Below, piece by piece: positions 4,470 to 15,503 of a stretch of DNA of 64,000 bases. The translations under genes were made by a program, and so were the position numbers. The DNA comes from Candidatus Lustribacter sp. (lineage in GTDB: Bacteria; Vulcanimicrobiota; Vulcanimicrobiia; Vulcanimicrobiales; Vulcanimicrobiaceae), in NCBI GenBank assembly GCA_965277805.1, contig OZ255842.1, positions 4,800,001-4,864,000 on the forward strand, read 5' to 3'. Within the stretch, counting starts at the first letter, position 1. The number at the start of each line of letters is the position of its first letter. The notes beneath the pieces were generated by a model. The model saw nothing but the letters and a program-made list of their open reading frames with translations, was not told where the DNA came from and ran no database searches.

Positions 4470-5414
4470 TTAGGTCGTAACGATGAGCTCGCTTGCGTCC
4501 ACGTGGCGCGTCAAGCCGCCGTACGTCAGCGCCGTGTCGAGCACGGGCTGGATCAACTGCGGTTCCAATGCGGTCGCGAAATTGACGCGGCGCATCTTGC
4601 GAATGAGCTCGACGTCGATCTTCGTGTACTTCGCGAGGATCGCCGCCGAGGCGTCGTGATGGCTGTTGGCCCAGCGCGCGGTCGTATAGATTGCGTCCGT
4701 CAGGCGTTTGGCAAGAGCCGGATTCGCGGTCAGCCAGCTGCGAGTTGAGAACCAGTCGCTGATCAGGAAGCGTTTGCCGACGGCGTCGTAGGGTGCCGCG
4801 AGCCGGCGCACTGCCGTTCCCGCGCTGCTTAAAAACGGTTCGCCGAAGTGCGCGCCCGCGACCGTGCCGCGCTCGAGCGCGGGCACCATTTGAATTGTCG
4901 GAAGTTCGATAAACGTGACCCGGGCGAGATTCGCGCCGTTCTTGACCAGCCAGGCCTTCACTGCCATGGCGCTCAGCGCCGTGATCGCAGGTACGGCGAT
5001 GGTTTGACCTTCGAAATCTTTGGCCACGCGGAAAGGAGCGTTGCCGGCGACGCAAAGCACCGTGCTCGGCGTCGCGGTTTCGTAGAGCCCACCGCCGGCG
5101 AAGACTGCCAACGGCAACCCGTGCACGACGGCATTGGCAAGTTCGGTCGCCTCGCCGAGCCCGACGTCGATTGCGCCGCCGATGCACGCCGCCGCTTGCG
5201 CGGCGCCATTCGGAAAGGTTTGAACTTTCGACGTTGAGTCCGGCGGCTGCAAACAGCCCGCCATCGACGCCGTATAAGCCCTCGCCGAACGTGTCGGCGA
5301 CGTTCTGACCGATCCGAATCGCCGGGCCCTGTTGCGCGCGCGCGAATCGTGGTGCAAGTGTGCCGGCGGCCGTGGCCGCAACAAACGCGAGCGACTGCCG
5401 GCGAGTAAGGCCAT
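4470..5414 (-). pseudogene. NMT1/SsuA-like ABC substrate-binding protein with Tat signal, frameshifted
   Basis: N-terminus (TRRQSLAFVAA...GLNVE) is in the 4447..5835 frame; C-terminus (VQTFPNGAAQ...) is in the 4470..5510 frame; switch at an A-run near 5226-5228 (minus strand). Confidence 0.75.
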
Positions 5415-5835
5415 TGCCGGTAACCTTTGCTGCGAGCGCGGCGAGGACGAGATCCCACGAGCGTTCGTAGCCGCCGGCGTTCGCGTCGTACGCGGCTTGC
5501 GGCGCAGCACCGCCGCCGTGACTCACGGTCACGCGCGTGCCGCCGTCGACCGCTTCGAACTCCACCTCGACGAACGTCGGCTGGTCCGGCCCCGTGCCGG
5601 GATACCAATCCAGCGCGAGCCGATGCGGTGGCGCAAAGGCACGCACGCGTCCCAACTGCACTTCCGTGCCGTCGGCCGCGCGTTCGAAGAACGGTCCGTC
5701 CGGTTCGATGCGAATGATGCTTGCATCGTCATCGGTGTGCCGGCGTTCGCTCGGCCACCACTCGCCCGCGCGTTGGGTGAATAGCGTGAAGGCGCGCTGC
5801 GGCTCGCAGCGCAGCACGATGCTCTTAACGATCAT
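5415..5835 (-). CDS. SRPBCC/AHA1-like domain protein (no stop before the SBP coding region)
   Basis: 'AFTLFT...WWP', 'PPHRLALDW', 'VEVEFEAVDGGTRVTVSH', C-terminal 'W..VL' helix; coupled to the upstream ArsR gene. Confidence 0.8.
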
Positions 5836-6125
5836 TCGCCGGCCAGCGTCTCGAGCCGTGCCAGCGCGACGTCCCAGAAGCTGTCGATGTAATCGCGCAC
5901 CGCGCGGAACCCTTTGAGCCGCACGGCATAGACGTTTTGCGTTCCACGCTCTTCCGGCACGACGAGCCCGGCATCTTGAAGCACCCGTAAGTGGCGTGAG
6001 ATCGCCGGCCGGCTGACATCGAAATGCAGCGCGAGCTCGCCCACCGGCAGCGGCGAGCGGCGCAGTTCGTTGAGGATTTCGCGCCGCAGCGGGTTTCCGA
6101 GCGCGTCGAGCGCGTGAACGTCCAT
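5832..6125 (-). CDS. ArsR/SmtB-family transcriptional regulator
   Basis: 'ALGNPLRREIL...SRPAISRHLRVLQDAGLV'; classic ArsR-SRPBCC pair. Confidence 0.92.
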   Translation of the reverse strand: MDVHALDALGNPLRREILNELRRSPLPVGELALHFDVSRPAISRHLRVLQDAGLVVPEERGTQNVYAVRLKGFRAVRDYIDSFWDVALARLETLAGE

Positions 6126-6244
6126 ACTACGCCAAATCGTAACACTCGCGTTACCGAGTTGCAAGGACGAGCCGGGTCTCGCGCGCCCGTCTTGAGGGCC
6201 TGTTCCGGCAGGACCGCTTTTAGGGTACCGGAACGGACCAGGCG

Positions 6245-7903
6245 ATGCTGCGCACTGGCGACCGGACGCAAGAGCGCCTCGCCCTGCTGGTTCGCGCGGG
6301 CGAGATGTTTCATCGTTCCCTCGAAGTCGAGGAAACGCTGGATAACGTCGCCCGGATGGCCGTCGAGTCGTTCTCCGACTTATGCTTGTTCGACTTGATC
6401 GACGAGCATTCAGACCGCCTCTACGTGACGGCCGGCGCCCACCGCGATCCCTCGATGGACGTGGTGCTCAAAAACGTCGGATCGTCGATTTTGTACGATA
6501 CGGAACTCGGCATCCATCCCGCCGTGCGGGTTTCGCAGTCGGGCAAGCCGTTCTTCGTTCCGGTGTTCGATGAGGCCGCGATCCATCAGCATGCAGCGTC
6601 GGGAAACCATGCCGCGTTCATGCGAAAAATGGGTTACCGGTCGAAGATCGTCGTCCCCGTCATCGCACAAGAACACATCTTCGGTGCGCTGAGCTTCGTG
6701 CGCACGGCCGACACCGTACCGTTCGACGAACAAGACGTCGATGCGGCGCAGGAACTCGGCCGGCGTGCCGGGCTGGCCGTCGCCAACGCGAAACAATTTC
6801 ATCGCGAACAGCACGTCGCCGCAACATTACAGCGTGCATTTCTGACGCAAGATTTTCCCGACCGCGAGAGGCTCGGTTTCCACGCCATCTACCGGCCGGG
6901 CAAAGGCGATGCCGAACTCGGCGGCGACTGGTACGACGCGTTCACCGTTGCCGACGGGTCCACGGTGATTACGATCGGCGACGTCACGGGTAAAGGCATC
7001 GAGGCCGCGCGCCTGATGGTGCAGTTACGGCAATCCGTGCGCGTGGGCGCATCGATCGACCCGGATCCCGGCGCCGTGTTACGGATCGTGAACGAGACGC
7101 TGCTGCTCGACCGCAGCCAAGCGATTGCGACGGCGTTTATCGGCTCGATCGCTCCCGGCGGCCGCACCGTGCGCTATGCCTCCGCCGGCCACCCGCCGGC
7201 ATTTTTGCGCCGCGACGACGGCACGCTGTTGCAGCTTTCCGGTTCCTCGCCGCCGGTGGGCATTCAAACCGGACTGACGTTCGATACAACGTCCCTGACG
7301 ATCGACGAACCCGCGACGCTGGTCTTGTACACGGACGGCGTAACCGAAGCGACGCGTGACGCGATCGCGGGCGAAGCCACGCTGCGCGCCGTCCTCGAGA
7401 GCAGTGCGTTCGGCGTTGCGGCCAATCCGGCGCGATTCGTCGAACGTGCCGTGGGCCGGAATCCATCGCAGGATGACGTCGCGATCATGACGGTTCGATT
7501 CGGAGATCGCCAGACGTTCTGCCAATGGGATTTTGCCGATCCCGCCGCGGCATACGCGATCAAAGGGAGCATCTTCGCGGCGCTCCGAGCGGTCGCGGAT
7601 TTTAGCGCCGAACAAGAACAAAATCTGCACGTGATCTTTAGCGAGCTCGTCGGCAATGCGGTGCGTCACGCACCCGGGGCCATGAGCCTTTCGATCTCGG
7701 CGCCGGGCGGGCGGCCGTGCTTGCACGTGATCGACGATGGGCCGGGATTCAGCCGGCGCCCGCAACTCCCGAACGACGTGTGGGCCGAGTCAGGGCGCGG
7801 ACTCTTTCTGATCTCGGCGCTGGCGGAAAAGCTGTCCATCGAACCGCTGGCAGGGTACGGTACGTACGTGAGCGTCGAATTGCGCTTTCAACCGCGTAGC
7901 TAA
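6245..7903 (+). CDS. GAF + SpoIIE (PP2C) phosphatase + HATPase_c anti-sigma-like domain
   Basis: 'GGDWYD', 'IGDVTGKG', 'SAGHPP', 'LYTDG', 'DDVA'; C-terminal 'SELVGNAVRHA...DDGPG...ESGRGLFL'. Confidence 0.92.
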   Translation: MLRTGDRTQERLALLVRAGEMFHRSLEVEETLDNVARMAVESFSDLCLFDLIDEHSDRLYVTAGAHRDPSMDVVLKNVGSSILYDTELGIHPAVRVSQSGKPFFVPVFDEAAIHQHAASGNHAAFMRKMGYRSKIVVPVIAQEHIFGALSFVRTADTVPFDEQDVDAAQELGRRAGLAVANAKQFHREQHVAATLQRAFLTQDFPDRERLGFHAIYRPGKGDAELGGDWYDAFTVADGSTVITIGDVTGKGIEAARLMVQLRQSVRVGASIDPDPGAVLRIVNETLLLDRSQAIATAFIGSIAPGGRTVRYASAGHPPAFLRRDDGTLLQLSGSSPPVGIQTGLTFDTTSLTIDEPATLVLYTDGVTEATRDAIAGEATLRAVLESSAFGVAANPARFVERAVGRNPSQDDVAIMTVRFGDRQTFCQWDFADPAAAYAIKGSIFAALRAVADFSAEQEQNLHVIFSELVGNAVRHAPGAMSLSISAPGGRPCLHVIDDGPGFSRRPQLPNDVWAESGRGLFLISALAEKLSIEPLAGYGTYVSVELRFQPRS

Positions 7904-7915
7904 AGGAGGCATATT

Positions 7916-8509
7916 TTGGATCGGGTGCTCCTCGTATGGTCGGACGTCGTTTGACCGTTTTGTTATCTCGGCTCGGTCTGGGTCGAAGAAGCGGCAAAGA
8001 AACTCGGCGTCACAACGCGGTGGCTGCCGTTCGAATTGCATCCTGAGGTGCCGCCCGAAGGCGCCGACAAGCCGTTTTCGGACGACGAGTGGCCAATGGT
8101 TCGCGCGCGGCTGATCGGTTTGGCGCAACGCGTCGGGCTGCCGATCGATCCGCCGCGGCGCAACGCCAATTCGCGGCTGGCGCTCGAGACGATGGAACTG
8201 GTGCGTTCGCGCGCCGGCGATGATGCGGCCGCCAGTTTCCATCACGCCGTTTCGCGCGCGTTCTTCGTCGAGGGCGCGAACGTTGCCGACATGGGCCTCA
8301 TCGCAGCCGAAGCGGCGGCATTCGGCATTGTGAAGGTCGACGTGGAGACGGCGTGGCAGCAGCATGACTTCGCCGGGGCCGTGGATGCGTCGATCGCGGC
8401 GTCGCGCGCGGCCGGCGTGCGGGGCGTGCCCGCCTACGGTTGGCCGGGGCAGCGCGCGATCAGCGGCATGATGGAGCCCGGCCAGATCATCGCAGCGCTG
8501 GGGGAATGA
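7916..8509 (+). CDS. DsbA/FrnE-family thiol oxidoreductase, probable selenoprotein (UxxC)
   Basis: AAGGAGG RBS 7903-7909, TTG start 7916; reads MDRVLLVWSDVV-[TGA 7952-7954]-PFCYLG...PFELHP...GVRGVP. The TGA sits where homologues have the first Cys of SDxxCPxCY. Confidence 0.85.
7968..7986 (+). promoter_or_regulatory. Candidate bacterial SECIS hairpin
   Basis: TCGGCTC-GGTCT-GGGTCGA: 7-bp stem (two G-U), G-first loop starting 21 nt after the UGA. Confidence 0.65.
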
Positions 8510-9531
8510 GGTGGGCGGCACTCGCGGTCGCTTCGGTGGGCGCCGGTTTTCTCGCGCAGGCCGGGCACGTTCCGGCAGCATGGCTGATCGGGCCGATGAT
8601 CGCCGCAATCGTTGCAGCAATCTCGGGATTCGGCCGAACGCTGCCGCGCTGGACGCTTGCCGCGCCGCAGGGCGTGATCGCGGTGACGATCGCACAGGTC
8701 TTCACGCTACCGGTGCTCGGTGAAGTCGCGCGCGACTGGCTGCCGATTCTCATCGTGGTCGTTGCAACGGTCGTCGCCGCCGGCACGGCGAGTTGGCTGC
8801 TCGCGCGCTACAGCCCGATCTCGGCGGCGACTGCCGCGTGGGGTTCATCGCCCGGCGCATCGGTGACGATGATCGCGCTCTCGGCCGAGTTCGGGGGCGA
8901 TCCGCGCGTGGTCGCGTTCATGCAGTATCTGCGCGTGACGCTGGTCGTGCTGTCGGCCTCGACGGTCGCGCATGTCGTGTTGGCGCATTCGCATGCGGTC
9001 GCCGCGCCGGCAGCGCCCGGGACGCAACCGTTCGCGCTCGTTCCGTTCGTTGCGACCTTCGCGTTTGCCGTCGCGGCTGCGTTCGCCGGGCGCATCTCGC
9101 GCGTTCCCGGTGCTCAGTTCATCTTTCCGCTGATCGCCGGCGGCGCGCTGCACGTCGCCGGGCTCTTGCCGATCGACGTGCCGTGGTGGCTGCTCGATGC
9201 GGCGTACCTCGCGGTGGGTTGGACGATCGGACTCGCGTACACGCGCGAGATCTTGCTGTTTGTCTGGAGCGTGCTGCCGACGCTGCTGCTCTCGACGCTG
9301 GTGTTGCTTGCAATGTGTGCGCTGGCGGGAGTGTTGCTGGTCGTGCTGGTGCACGTCGATCCGCTCACCGCGTATCTTGCGACGACGCCGGGCGGCCTCG
9401 ACTCGGTGTCGATCATCGCGCTCGGCAGCGGCAGCAACGTCGCGCTGATCCTCGCGATCCAAACGTTGCGGCTGTTCGCGGTCGTTGCCAGCGGCCCGCC
9501 CTTGGCAAAGCTGATCGGCCGCATCGCGTAA
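8506..9531 (+). CDS. AbrB-family (AbrB-duplication) membrane protein
   Basis: 'PAAWLIGPM', 'SPGAS..M', 'VAFMQYLR', 'ATTPGG', 'QTLRL'; ATGA overlap with the DsbA-like gene. Confidence 0.88.
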   Translation: MRWAALAVASVGAGFLAQAGHVPAAWLIGPMIAAIVAAISGFGRTLPRWTLAAPQGVIAVTIAQVFTLPVLGEVARDWLPILIVVVATVVAAGTASWLLARYSPISAATAAWGSSPGASVTMIALSAEFGGDPRVVAFMQYLRVTLVVLSASTVAHVVLAHSHAVAAPAAPGTQPFALVPFVATFAFAVAAAFAGRISRVPGAQFIFPLIAGGALHVAGLLPIDVPWWLLDAAYLAVGWTIGLAYTREILLFVWSVLPTLLLSTLVLLAMCALAGVLLVVLVHVDPLTAYLATTPGGLDSVSIIALGSGSNVALILAIQTLRLFAVVASGPPLAKLIGRIA

Positions 9532-9544
9532 CGAACCGCGAGGC

Positions 9545-10546
9545 ATGATCAACCGCCGCCGCGCAGTCGCTGCGCTCGCCGCACTTACCGCCGTGCCGTT
9601 TGCGCGCGCCGCATCGGCGGCCGACAAGATCACGATCTCGGTGCCGTCGACGAACGTGGACGATGCCGCGATCTTCGTTGCGTTGCAGAAGGGCTATTTC
9701 GCGGCCGCGGGACTCGACGCCGACCTCACCGTGATGGGCGGCGGCATCGCGACGCCCGGGCTGCTTTCGGGAAGCCTGCAAGCGAGTGCATCGCCGGCCG
9801 CGGCGCTGAGCGCGATCTTGCGCGGCGCCGACCTGCGCATCTTGCTCGTGTTCGGCACGAGCCCGCCCTACCAGTTGTGGGGCAACGATTCGATCCGGTC
9901 GCTCGCCGATTTGCCCGGCAAGACCGTCGGCATTCAGAGCCGCGGCGATACCTTCGAACTCGCCACGCGCATCGCGCTGCAGCAAGCCGGCGTCTCAGCC
10001 GATTCGGTCGGCTTCACGCCGCTGGGCGTCGGCGGAACGGTCGGCGGTGCCCTGACGAGCGGTGCGGTTCCGGCGATCTGCACCGCCGGCGTCGAAATCA
10101 ACGAATTGCGCGCGCACGGTCTGCTCAAGAACGCCCACCTCGTCATGAACTACTACGGCAAAATTCACATGCCGTTCAACGGTCTAGCGACCTCGCAGAA
10201 GCTCATCACCGAGAGCCCGCAAATCGTGCACGGCATCGTGACCGGAATCGTCAAAGCGGTGCGCTACGCGCGTGCGTTCAAGCCGCAGACTGTTGCGATG
10301 ACGGCGAAGTACGCAACCAACCCCAACCTGGTGGCGCTCGGCGAAGACTACGACGTGCTGATGGAGTACTTGACCCCATCGTTGACGGCGCGCCCCGACG
10401 TGCTGATCCCCGATCTTGCGGTGCGCGCGCAGTTGCTGAACATTCCGAAAGCGCAGATTCCGCCGATCGAAAAAGTCTACGACTTCACGATCGCGCAGGC
10501 GGTCGGGGCCGAACTCGATCGCGCTCGCTGGCGGCCGGTCGCGTAA
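9545..10546 (+). CDS. NMT1/THI5-like ABC substrate-binding protein with Tat-type signal
   Basis: 'NRRRAVAAL...ARA' leader, 'VALQKGYFAAAGLD', 'SLADLPGKTVG'. Confidence 0.88.
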   Translation: MINRRRAVAALAALTAVPFARAASAADKITISVPSTNVDDAAIFVALQKGYFAAAGLDADLTVMGGGIATPGLLSGSLQASASPAAALSAILRGADLRILLVFGTSPPYQLWGNDSIRSLADLPGKTVGIQSRGDTFELATRIALQQAGVSADSVGFTPLGVGGTVGGALTSGAVPAICTAGVEINELRAHGLLKNAHLVMNYYGKIHMPFNGLATSQKLITESPQIVHGIVTGIVKAVRYARAFKPQTVAMTAKYATNPNLVALGEDYDVLMEYLTPSLTARPDVLIPDLAVRAQLLNIPKAQIPPIEKVYDFTIAQAVGAELDRARWRPVA

Positions 10547-10571
10547 CGGGGCGTCCGCTGATCCCGCCTCA

Positions 10572-10591
10572 GGTTCGGCGCTGGCCGAACC
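10572..10591. promoter_or_regulatory. Palindrome, candidate operator of the downstream ArsR-type regulator
   Basis: GGTTCGGC-GCTG-GCCGAACC perfect 8-bp inverted repeat just upstream of the MFS-regulator pair. Confidence 0.5.
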
Positions 10592-10597
10592 GTCGTT

Positions 10598-11979
10598 TTG
10601 GCTCCGGTAAACGCGGTAGACTCGGGAGATGAGCCTTCATCGATGGTGATTGCGGCCACAGCGCTCGGCTTCGTCCTCGTTCAGCTCGACGTGTCGATCG
10701 TGAACGTTGCGCTCCCCACGATGGGACGCGAGCTTCATTCCGGCGTCGCCGCTCTCCAGTGGGTTGTCGATGCGTACACCGTAACGTTCGCGGCGCTGCT
10801 GCTTTCGGGCGGAGCGTTGGGCGACCGGATCGGTGCGCGGCGTGCGTACGCCGGCGGTTTCGTCGTCTTCGTGTGCGCCTCGATCGCATGCGGTTTCGCA
10901 TCGACGGCCGATATGCTGATCGCCGCGCGCGTCGTGCAAGGCGCGGGCGCGGCGCTGCTCATTCCGTCTTCGCTGGCGCTGATCAATCACGCGTACGGGA
11001 ACGACGCGGGAGAGAGCGGGCCAAAGCGGTTGGTCTCTGGACTGCTGCCGGGAGCGTTGCGCTCGCAGCCGGACCGATCGCCGGCGGCGCACTGATCGAG
11101 AGCATCGGTTGGCGAAGCATTTTCTTCGTCAACGTGCCGCTGGGTGCAATCGGGCTGTGGCTTACCTGGCGCTGGGTCGCCGAGACGCCACCTGGAGAGC
11201 GCGCGTTTGATTTTCCGGGTCAAGTGCTTGCGGTCATCGCGCTCGGTCTCCTGATCGCAGACGTCATCGCCGCCGGCGCGACGGATTGGAACCCGCCGTT
11301 CGTTGTCCTGGGCCTTGCCGCAACGGTCGTTTTCGGCGCCGCGTTCATCTTTGCCGAAGCCCGTTCGCGCGCACCGATGCTGCCGCTCGATTTATTCCGG
11401 CGGGCCGGATTCAGCGCACCGGCGATCGTGGGCTTTGCGATCAACCTGACGTTGTATGGACAATTGTTCGTGCTGAGGCTTTTTTGGCAGCGCACGCAAG
11501 GCTACGGTCCGTTGCAGACGGGTCTAGCATTTCTGCCGTTCTGCGTAAGCCTGGGCTTCGCGAACGTCATCACCGGCCGGCTCGTTGCGAAGCACGGACC
11601 GCGATGGCCGATGATTGCGGGCTTGACGATTGCGATCGCCGGCTATCTGCTGCTATTGCCGATCGATGCGCACGTACCGTATGCAATGCTCTTGCCCGGC
11701 ACGATCGTGCTCCCGTTCGGAATCGGTCTGGCCGTGCCGGCAATGACGAGTGCGCTGCTCGCTGCGGTTGAAAAAGAGCGGTCCGGGATCGCTTCCGGTG
11801 TGCTGAACGCGGTGCGGCAAGCGGCCGGCGCGCTCGGCGTCGCCGTTCTCGGAGCAATTGCCGTCCACGGGGTACTCGGCGTTCGCATCGGACTGCTTCT
11901 TTCGGCTGCCCTCATCGCGCTTGCACTCCTCGTCGCGATCTTCGGACTGCGTGCGTCCGCGAAGGGAGCGTCGTCATAG
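10598..11979 (+). pseudogene. DHA2 (EmrB/QacA-like) MFS transporter, frameshifted
   Basis: N-half 'QLDVSIVNVALP' (10598..11095 frame) and C-half 'RAKAVGLW...GWRSIFFVNVP' (10759..11979 frame) meet at GAGAGAG near 11010-11016; removing one AG restores NDAGERAKAV. Confidence 0.8.
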
Positions 11980-13641: not shown

Positions 13642-14988
13642 ATGGATGCAGCCGAACTCGCCGGCCTCGTCGACGTTCGTAGCGGCACCGTCGATCCGCG
13701 CATCTACTTCGATCAAGACATCTACGACCTCGAACTCGAACGCGTCTTCGGGCGCTCGTGGCTCCTCCTCGGGCACGAATCCCAGATCCCGAAGCCGGGG
13801 GATTACGTCAGCACCTACATGGCGGAAGATCCGGTGCTGGTCGTGCGCCAGCCGGATCGCACGGTGCGCGCGTTCCTCAACGTCTGCCGTCATCGCGGCA
13901 TGCGCCTGTGCCCCTACGACCTCGGTAATGCAAAGGGATTCAGTTGTTCGTATCACGGTTGGTCGTACGATACGGCCGGCAAGTTGATCGGCGTGCCGCA
14001 CGCGCAGGACGGATACGGCGGCGAACTCGACCTTTCGCAGTGGCCGGCGCGCAGCGTCGAAAAACTCGAGATCTATCGCGGCTTGATCTTCGGCACCTGG
14101 AACGCCGATGCGCCCGACCTGCGCACCTATCTCGGACCGCTGGCGTGGTGGCTCGACGGCATGCTCGACCGATCACCGGCCGGATCGAAATTGATTCCGG
14201 GCGTCTCGAAGTGGACCGTGCCGTGCAATTGGAAGCTGCCGGCCGAACAGTTCACCAGCGACTTCTATCATTTCCCAATCACGCACTCGTCCGCGATCGC
14301 GGCGATGCGCCGTCCGACGGATCCGCCGATCGAGCGCGCGTTCAACAAGACGCCCGGATATCAAGTCACGAGCTCCTACGGACATGGCTTCGGTTCGTTC
14401 TGGTTCACCGAACCCGAACGCCGAGCATGGACGGAAGATGCGGCGTGGCGTCATCAGGTTGAGGAGTTTCCGGCCGTCAAGGAACGGCTCGGCACGCTGC
14501 ACGCGGCGCGCACGAGCGGTCATGGTGAGGTGTTTCCGAACTTTGCCACGCTGGCCGGACCCGGCCTATTGCGCATCTGGCATCCGCGCGGACCGAACTT
14601 GACCGACGTGTGGTCGTACTTGGTCGTGGAAGCCGATGCGCCCGACGACGTGGTCGAGGCCGTTCGCGTCGGCGGTGCGCGCAGCTTCGGGCCGAGCGGT
14701 TTGCTCGAACAAGACGATTCCGAGAACTGGATTCAGATCCAGCGCAATCTGCGCGGCTACGTCACCCGGCAAACGCCGTTCAACATGCAGATGGGTTTGC
14801 ACGGCACGCCGATCGAGACCGACGAAATTCCGGGCGTCGTGCGGCACGTGTTCTGCGAGAGCGCGGCGCGCGGAATGTACGAACGCTGGCACGAGCTGCT
14901 GCGCACGCCGACCGCGGTCGAAGCCGAGCGGCTACGCGTTGCGCGCGCGCCCGAGCGCGACCGCGCGTTCGTACCGGTGGTGCGATGA
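13642..14988 (+). CDS. Rieske aromatic ring-hydroxylating dioxygenase alpha subunit (HcaE/BphA-like)
   Basis: CRHRG...CSYHGW Rieske ligands; '[14 protein letters not shown]...TH' and 'EQDDSENW' iron site. Confidence 0.95.
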
Positions 14989-15503
14989 GCGTTACCGATG
15001 AGATGGTGCGCTATTTCAGCGTTCAGAACTTCCTCTTCGACGAGGCCGCGCTGCTCGACGAGCGGCGCTTCGATGAATGGCTCGAGCTCTGCGCCCCCGA
15101 GATCCGCTATTGGATGCCGGCCCAGACGAACCGCGATCGCCGCGAGCGCGATCTCACCGTTGGAGGACCCCAAGATCTACCGATGTTCGAAGAAACGTGG
15201 GAGCATCTCCATCAACGCGTGCGACGGCTGGCGACGGGCCACGCCTGGGCCGAAGAGCCGCCGTCGCGCACGCGCCGCTTCGTCGCCAACCTGCGCGTTG
15301 CCGAACGCGGCGAAGGTGCCGTGCGCGCATCCAGCAGTCTGCTGCTTTACCGCACGCGACACGACGCCGACGTACAGTTCTTCGTCGCTTCCCGCCAAGA
15401 CGATCTGCGCCCGCATGAAACGCACCGCTGGCAAATCGTCGCTCGTACGATCGTGCTCGACGCGACGACGGTTCCGGGCCACAACTTGAGCGTGTTCTTC
15501 TGA
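14985..15503 (+). CDS. Ring-hydroxylating dioxygenase beta subunit (HcaF/BphE-like)
   Basis: '[18 protein letters not shown]', '[11 protein letters not shown]', C-terminal 'NLSVFF'; ATGA overlap. Confidence 0.93.

Follow-up and report, generated by a model that had tools for sequence, protein, structure and literature searches.

An in-frame UGA codon, very probably read as selenocysteine, in a FrnE-like DsbA-family gene of Candidatus Lustribacter

The window (the whole 64,000-nucleotide stretch of Candidatus Lustribacter sp. DNA under analysis) holds a table-11 open reading frame at positions 8036–8509 of the forward strand, whose frame stays open further upstream across a TGA. This raises the question of whether that TGA is a stop or a selenocysteine (Sec) codon. 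A preliminary description of the sequence had proposed a hidden selenoprotein, and its local anatomy was found as described. A Shine-Dalgarno sequence, AAGGAGG (7903–7909), overlaps the upstream gene's TAA stop and lies 6 nt ahead of a TTG start (7916–7918). From this codon the frame reads DRVLLVWSDVV-TGA-PFCYLG, joins the frame of the shorter call and runs to a TGA stop at 8507–8509, giving a predicted coding sequence (7916–8509, forward strand) for a 197-aa FrnE-like DsbA-family selenoprotein. The in-frame TGA (7952–7954) would encode Sec13, and a TGT (7961–7963) encodes Cys16, the protein's sole Cys and the presumed resolving residue of a UxxC motif (U13-P-F-C16). Behind the codon, TCGGCTC (7968–7974) and GGGTCGA (7980–7986) form the 7-bp stem of a candidate SECIS hairpin (7968–7986) around the loop GGTCT (7975–7979), the first G of which is at +21 from the UGA. 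Over 7700–8700, a contig of sequencing run X1 is identical to the window (0 differing letters) and also reads TGA, although it probably comes from the same source as the window DNA and is hence not independent.

We compared the locus with relatives drawn from Ca. Eremiobacteraeota, Ca. Lustribacter and Vulcanimicrobiota records. The active-site TGA was present in 7/7 loci of the first relatives compared. Among 61 genomes of the window's class there were 20 matches, including 15 close orthologues spanning the codon, all with TGA (15/15); the other five comprised one that did not span the codon, two distant FrnE forms with CPWC and two Ser forms. A search of 401 genomes of the phylum (query P0032, E 1e-20) matched 69, all in the three families of the window's class (67/399 without the unpublished genomes G366 and G254). 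TGA was held by 67 of the 73 matched stretches, its position being confirmed in 30/30 loci fetched and taken from the TGA flag alone for the other 37 stretches; the remaining 6 stretches begin behind the site. Loci L050 and L070 (unpublished genomes) were excluded from the alignments and the trees. In the final alignment the TGA was kept in 36/36 distinct orthologue sequences, which are 55–99% identical to the window's protein. The WSDV(V/I) coding sequence ahead of the TGA was conserved in the same 36/36, and the orthologues start with ATG, GTG or TTG at or near the codon corresponding to TTG 7916. The alignment proposed earlier as a check for Cys/TGA interchange thus gave TGA throughout the orthologues and Cys at the same site in close homologues, and the 120 top database proteins include 7 full-length ones with Cys there.

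The genome is a single contig of 5.53 Mb (95% complete, 5.9% contaminated). It was searched for the Sec machinery, and SelA (E = 6e-123), SelB (over the cut-off), SelD (E = 2e-113) and tRNA-Sec (75.8 bits, anticodon UCA) were all recovered. The selA and selB genes are side by side, the C-terminus of SelB is a SECIS-binding wing domain and SelD is the Cys form, so the earlier proposal that the organism uses Sec is well founded. A thioredoxin gene (WCGPC) stands directly ahead of selA-selB (G000:C1 4921072–4924602). Across the class, SelA was found in 58/61 genomes and the SelB wing domain in 60/61 (52/55 and 53/54 without the six and seven unpublished genomes, respectively, included in these tallies), and Sec use looks nearly universal. 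Two genomes have SelB and no SelA match: G009 and G011, the latter 97% complete in one contig. All 15 genomes (of 61) with a TGA orthologue have SelA and SelB matches; we rejected this co-occurrence as evidence, because relatives with or without the gene nearly all carry SelA and it therefore does not discriminate.

The published bacterial SECIS consensus specifies a loop of 3–9 nt with G in the first two places, a spacing of 16–37 nt, a stem of 4–16 bp and an energy of -7.5 or below (PMC13188914). Applying these constraints with our own script, written from the legend of Fig. 2 in that review and used instead of bSECISearch, we found the hairpin to lie within every limit, with a 5-nt loop, G-G/U first, a 7-bp stem, a 20-nt spacing and less than -7.5 kcal/mol. 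However, the loose consensus is also passed by 45/250 TGA, 60/250 TAA and 57/250 TAG ordinary stops (18–24%), and a stricter form by 0/250, 5/250 and 3/250, respectively. Folding energy was dropped as evidence, as the hairpin is no more stable than shuffled sequences (z -0.8 to -1.5, not significant). Alone, then, the hairpin is weak evidence; its conservation across orthologues together with the TGA makes it strong evidence.

Pairing is kept in 36/36 orthologues: the seven stem pairs hold in 224/224 cells (36 sequences, 32 of them distinct over the 48 nt). As controls, 0/500 shuffles reach as high and slid registers are 13–57% paired, although the shuffle counts are not to be read as probabilities, because the sequences are kin and not independent and the stem uses the genome's common codons (CTC, 46% of Leu; GGC, 66% of Gly). 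One pair varies between G-U and G-C across orthologues (a Val or Ala codon). Another, at +18/+28, shows a compensatory change from C-G to U-A in 3/36 sequences, made up of a silent GGC-to-GGT change and a Val-to-Ile change; it is seen in L046 and, on a different branch of the tree, in L067 and L068. Covariation is limited to this pair and about two events, was absent among the first 17 sequences and became visible only with 36. Over codons +4 to +10, the synonymous difference among 16 full-length sequences is 0.14, against 0.49 elsewhere, and is below all 164 other windows of codons, the lowest of which is 0.32. Six of the 36 sequences carry the loop variants AGUUU and AGUCU. The apex of the E. 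coli fdhF SECIS also contains GGUCU, as the preliminary description had pointed out, and the same apex is common to the window's hairpin and the fdhF SECIS described for Salmonella (PMC4489274). Unlike the SECIS model and enterobacterial fdhF, the window's hairpin lacks a bulged U in its upper stem, and its lower stem is not kept in register between orthologues.

Other readings of the codon were weighed against this background. Were the TGA a true stop, the locus would be a nonsense allele or pseudogene, or would encode a protein without the active site, with its start downstream at 8036 or later. The public annotation would agree, since 113 of the 120 top database proteins begin only after residue 13 and the public call for the window's own sequence is a 137-aa piece. 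These short proteins are, however, gene-caller outputs. With the TGA, the WSDV(V/I) sequence and the hairpin all conserved in 36/36 sequences down to 55% identity, and with Cys forms that are full length at the same site, a true stop is highly improbable; the short form would also lose strand 1 and helix 1 of the modelled fold. If TGA were generally a codon for Trp or Gly (code 4 or 25), an open frame across it would be explained, and nothing more. TGA is the stop of 1639 of the 3974 long coding-like frames in the genome, prfB is present (over the cut-off), the sole UCA tRNA is tRNA-Sec while tRNA-Trp has CCA, and the homologues have Cys at the site; together these rule out a changed code, to which we attach a negligible probability. 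Each outcome named beforehand as fatal to a Sec reading failed to appear: sel genes are present, the assembled sequence reads TGA and not TGC or TGT, and the TGA is shared well beyond this strain. Judged from sequence, machinery and conservation, there is very little doubt that Sec is inserted at this UGA, and the earlier proposal to that effect is supported by the sel genes, the 36/36 TGA codons, the Cys homologues and the covariation in the hairpin.

We then asked what the protein is. With the TGA read as U, it matches PF01323 (DSBA) over residues 5–187 (78.3 bits against a cut-off of 25.6, E = 8e-22) and is the genome's only match to this profile; no NCBIfam model matches it. By sequence, its best solved relative is FrnE of Deinococcus radiodurans (DR_0659; PDB 5CNW and others; E = 5e-10), in which U13 falls on the first Cys of CPWC (the nucleophilic Cys22) and GVP is aligned with Gly170-Val171-Pro172 (8423–8431), the position of the thioredoxin-fold cis-Pro loop, as placed by alignment and not by geometry. 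An AlphaFold2 model from a 47-row alignment (pLDDT 95) likewise gave FrnE first in Foldseek (TMq 0.83–0.85), followed by SCO1869, a Nitrosomonas protein, HCCA isomerases, YjbH, DsbM, kappa GST and Rv2466c, with periplasmic DsbAs lower. In the model, strand 1 begins at residue 4, which leaves no room for a signal peptide. Judged on its features, the protein probably belongs with the FrnE subfamily (cd03024), having an N-terminal CxxC-type site in a DsbA-like fold and, according to the model, a cytoplasmic location.

Relative to D. radiodurans FrnE, the window's protein shares the WSD..CP.C and GVP motifs and, as predicted from the model, a cytoplasmic location without a signal peptide, whereas it has Sec for Cys22, about 25% identity and SGMMEP for SGAQAP. 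It also lacks the C-terminal CxxxxC relay, Cys16 being its only Cys; some FrnE proteins, such as those of D. maricopensis and S. roseofulvus, are described as lacking this tail as well (PMC8945050). Its regeneration must therefore differ from that of D. radiodurans FrnE, which is reported to act in cadmium and diamide stress (PMC8945050). That DsbA-like proteins are a recognised family of bacterial selenoproteins, as the preliminary description held, is borne out by the literature: DsbA-like UxxC selenoproteins were described in 2005 from nine Sargasso Sea sequences (COG2761; PMC1088965) and are listed as form 1 in a 2026 review (PMC13188914), with members reported from marine metagenomes and from anaerobes such as Anaeromyxobacter, Desulfovibrio and Desulfotomaculum (PMC1794560). 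Form 1 shares with the present protein the PF01323 domain, Sec in the first position of UxxC and a hairpin behind the codon whose small apical loop contains G, both being predicted by computation only (PMC1088965, PMC13188914). Compared with the published members by their descriptions, the present proteins differ in forming a tight Eremiobacterota/Vulcanimicrobiota clade that is less than 40% identical to most other library representatives.

The gene almost certainly encodes a small cytoplasmic redox enzyme in which the attacking Cys is replaced by Sec via an internal UGA. The fuller reading, a 197-residue cytoplasmic FrnE-like thiol-disulfide oxidoreductase with Sec at residue 13, we hold to be highly probable. 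Delivery of Sec-tRNA to UGA by SelB is an established pathway. Here, SelB.GTP.Sec-tRNA would insert Sec on binding the GGUCU hairpin, which lies 21 nt past the UGA; otherwise release factor 2 would stop translation after 12 residues, so output should depend on selenium supply. The selenolate of Sec13, at the start of helix 1, would attack the disulfide of a partner protein, and Cys16 would resolve the mixed bond, leaving a Sec13-Cys16 selenenylsulfide. Because the protein has no counterpart of the CxxxxC relay in D. radiodurans FrnE, we propose that an outside reductant resets this bond, most plausibly thioredoxin/thioredoxin reductase. TrxB is over the cut-off in the genome, whereas no DsbB (PF02600), gshB or bshC was found and no mshC reached the cut-off in this 95% complete assembly, which favours both thioredoxin and a cytoplasmic reductase/isomerase role. 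A part in redox-stress repair as a reductase or isomerase is likely, while thioredoxin as the recycler has about an even chance. For transcription, the RNA-library runs X15 and X16 gave only short records of relatives' genes in small shares and none for this gene. A promoter scan of 6000–10700 returned 0 sites, and a terminator-like match at 7936–7958 is within the chance range (9 found in the region, 4.1 ± 2.2 expected).

The main rival concerns function only. With Sec inserted as above, the enzyme might act on small molecules with a low-molecular-weight thiol, in the manner of kappa GST, HCCA isomerase, DsbM or Rv2466c, to which it has TMq values of 0.75–0.78 (HCCA isomerase and kappa GST) and 0.61–0.68 (Rv2466c and DsbM). 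The clade's own invariant residues (W176, M185-M186 and KPF) and the long stem branch of the clade in the tree also hint at a specialised substrate. We nevertheless consider this role unlikely, given that FrnE ranks first by both sequence and fold, that the motif retains its second Cys and that, among the genes sought in the 95% complete genome, gshB and bshC gave no match and mshC none above the cut-off. A periplasmic DsbA-type oxidase that makes disulfides is suggested by the Pfam name, and true DsbA proteins do appear low in the fold list (TM about 0.5–0.65). The absence of room for a signal peptide in the model, the lack of a DsbB match and the CPFC-like motif, as in FrnE, make such an oxidase very improbable, and a cytoplasmic FrnE-like reductase/isomerase remains the preferred reading.

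Close Cys forms bear on the history of the codon. CxxC is present in 115/150 library representatives. A pattern search restricted to Cys found four metagenome loci (L035–L038), all with TGT (4/4), while the genome uses TGC about six times more often (TGT 603, TGC 3516); the use of the rarer codon by all four suggests that they may be young reversions. The stem or loop is broken in L035, L037 and L038 and intact in L036, whereas by the same test 0/36 TGA forms are broken. L037 (P0003), the sister of L046 and 85% identical to the Sec form, keeps the Ile without the paired silent change. Masking the active-site residue, we built a tree from 35 TGA forms, 7 Cys forms and 4 distant Cys proteins. 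Its deepest branches are TGA. Accounting for the Cys forms takes 6 changes, or 5 should an open fork be resolved their way; holding them together as one group was rejected (p-AU 9e-56). The outgroup of this tree is long-branched, and the DNA is known for 3 of the 7 Cys proteins. P0002 and P0032 are single-member clusters that could be errors, and L035 has a frameshift. P0003, by contrast, occurs on 12 contigs, and several Cys members are listed in the P0073 cluster. An earlier survey counts 15 Sec-to-Cys events in four families and its 2006 table lists none for DsbA-like proteins (PMC1794560), against about 5–6 here; such changes are described as rare (PMC13188914) and are reported to be almost limited to FdhA and SelD. 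On balance we lean slightly towards a FrnE-like subfamily specific to this lineage of Vulcanimicrobiota soil bacteria, with Sec as the ancestral state, at least five independent reversions to Cys, and a SECIS that constrains the protein and decays once Cys returns. As part of the same slightly favoured reading, residue +10 would be restricted to Val or Ala, with Ile allowed only where the Gly codon carries the paired silent change. If true, this would offer natural Sec/Cys pairs at 85–90% identity with which to test what Sec buys a soil bacterium and, with the covarying in-frame SECIS, a clean small case of an RNA structure constraining a protein. Nine distant FrnE-like representatives (30–40%; P0150, P0163, P0172, P0195, P0205, P0229, P0249, P0256 and P0259) also begin past the active site and are dispersed among the Cys forms in the tree; they are possibly other Sec lineages.

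A strict hairpin scan of the genome's 131,447 TGA triplets, which genes with other hairpins or short frames can escape, left 24 coding-like candidates. Four of these look real: the FrnE-like gene, a formate dehydrogenase alpha subunit and two PrdB/GrdB-like genes, all with a C-G-closed GGUCN loop 17–20 nt behind the UGA. The formate dehydrogenase codon (C1:3160986, reverse strand; gene at G000:C1 3158287–3161565) reads RI-TGA-HS and has a GGUCU hairpin; downstream are beta, NrfD-like and FdhD-like genes, as named from their translations. The PrdB/GrdB-like pair (G000:C1 3857351, reverse strand, L043:3659–4819; and G000:C1 2098042, forward strand, L044:3619–4761) read TPT-U-PLC, with GGUCG/GGUCA hairpins. 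Both stand alone and give about 380 aa on readthrough, with TIGR04483 as the best NCBIfam match, below the cut-off. Two broader scans were set aside: the loose consensus passed 222/1134 coding-like TGA read-throughs, mostly noise, and a plain search for the loop motif gave 91 matches, mostly out of frame.

The protein family has been known since 2005 and no new mechanism is involved; the gene is a well-supported further member. Our literature search for Sec in Eremiobacterota, Vulcanimicrobiota or WPS-2 found no report within its scope, which stopped short of subscription papers and the supplements of selenoproteome surveys that may list these genomes. The result corrects a systematic mis-call that strips the active site from most public proteins of the clade. 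It also indicates that a soil phylum that has received little study would use Sec beyond formate dehydrogenase, with at least four apparently UGA-recoded genes in this genome. We take the lifestyle of the Vulcanimicrobiota group to be aerobic. The repeated reversions and the phylum-wide use of Sec are the parts worth a specialist's glance, and the latter bears on the statement that aerobes rarely keep selenoproteins (PMC13188914).

At the compared loci, the immediate neighbours were judged from our own ORF translations. The preliminary description had placed the gene 12 nt behind a SpoIIE gene and in ATGA overlap with an AbrB-family membrane gene, and both hold: a GAF-SpoIIE-HATPase_c gene (6245–7903, forward strand) ends with TAA at 7901–7903, and the overlap at 8506–8509 leads into a gene (8506–9531, forward strand) of the membrane-protein family AbrB (PF05145, TIGR03082), correctly labelled as such and not as the transition-state regulator. 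The arrangement recurs in only 1/19 loci (L008, 95% identical), and conserved context was therefore rejected; the gene travels alone, and its neighbours are uninformative about function. In L011 it is directly followed by an NMT1-type binding-protein gene, which in the window lies behind abrB, and in L022, L023 and L027 (family f2) ORF translations place it within or next to the tuf-rpsJ-rplC region of ribosomal protein genes. Elsewhere in the window, an MFS transporter gene (10598–11979, forward strand) is apparently split over two frames, 10598–11095 and a second ending at 11979; L008 reads through from the same start for 287 aa. The split appears to be a frameshift or an assembly error. Odd N-termini or frame changes were also seen in the ORF list at 4470–5510 (reverse strand), which we take to be ABC binding-protein-like, and at 14998–15503 (forward strand), presumably an aromatic dioxygenase beta-subunit-like gene behind its alpha subunit at 13642–14988; these are possibly further frameshifts.
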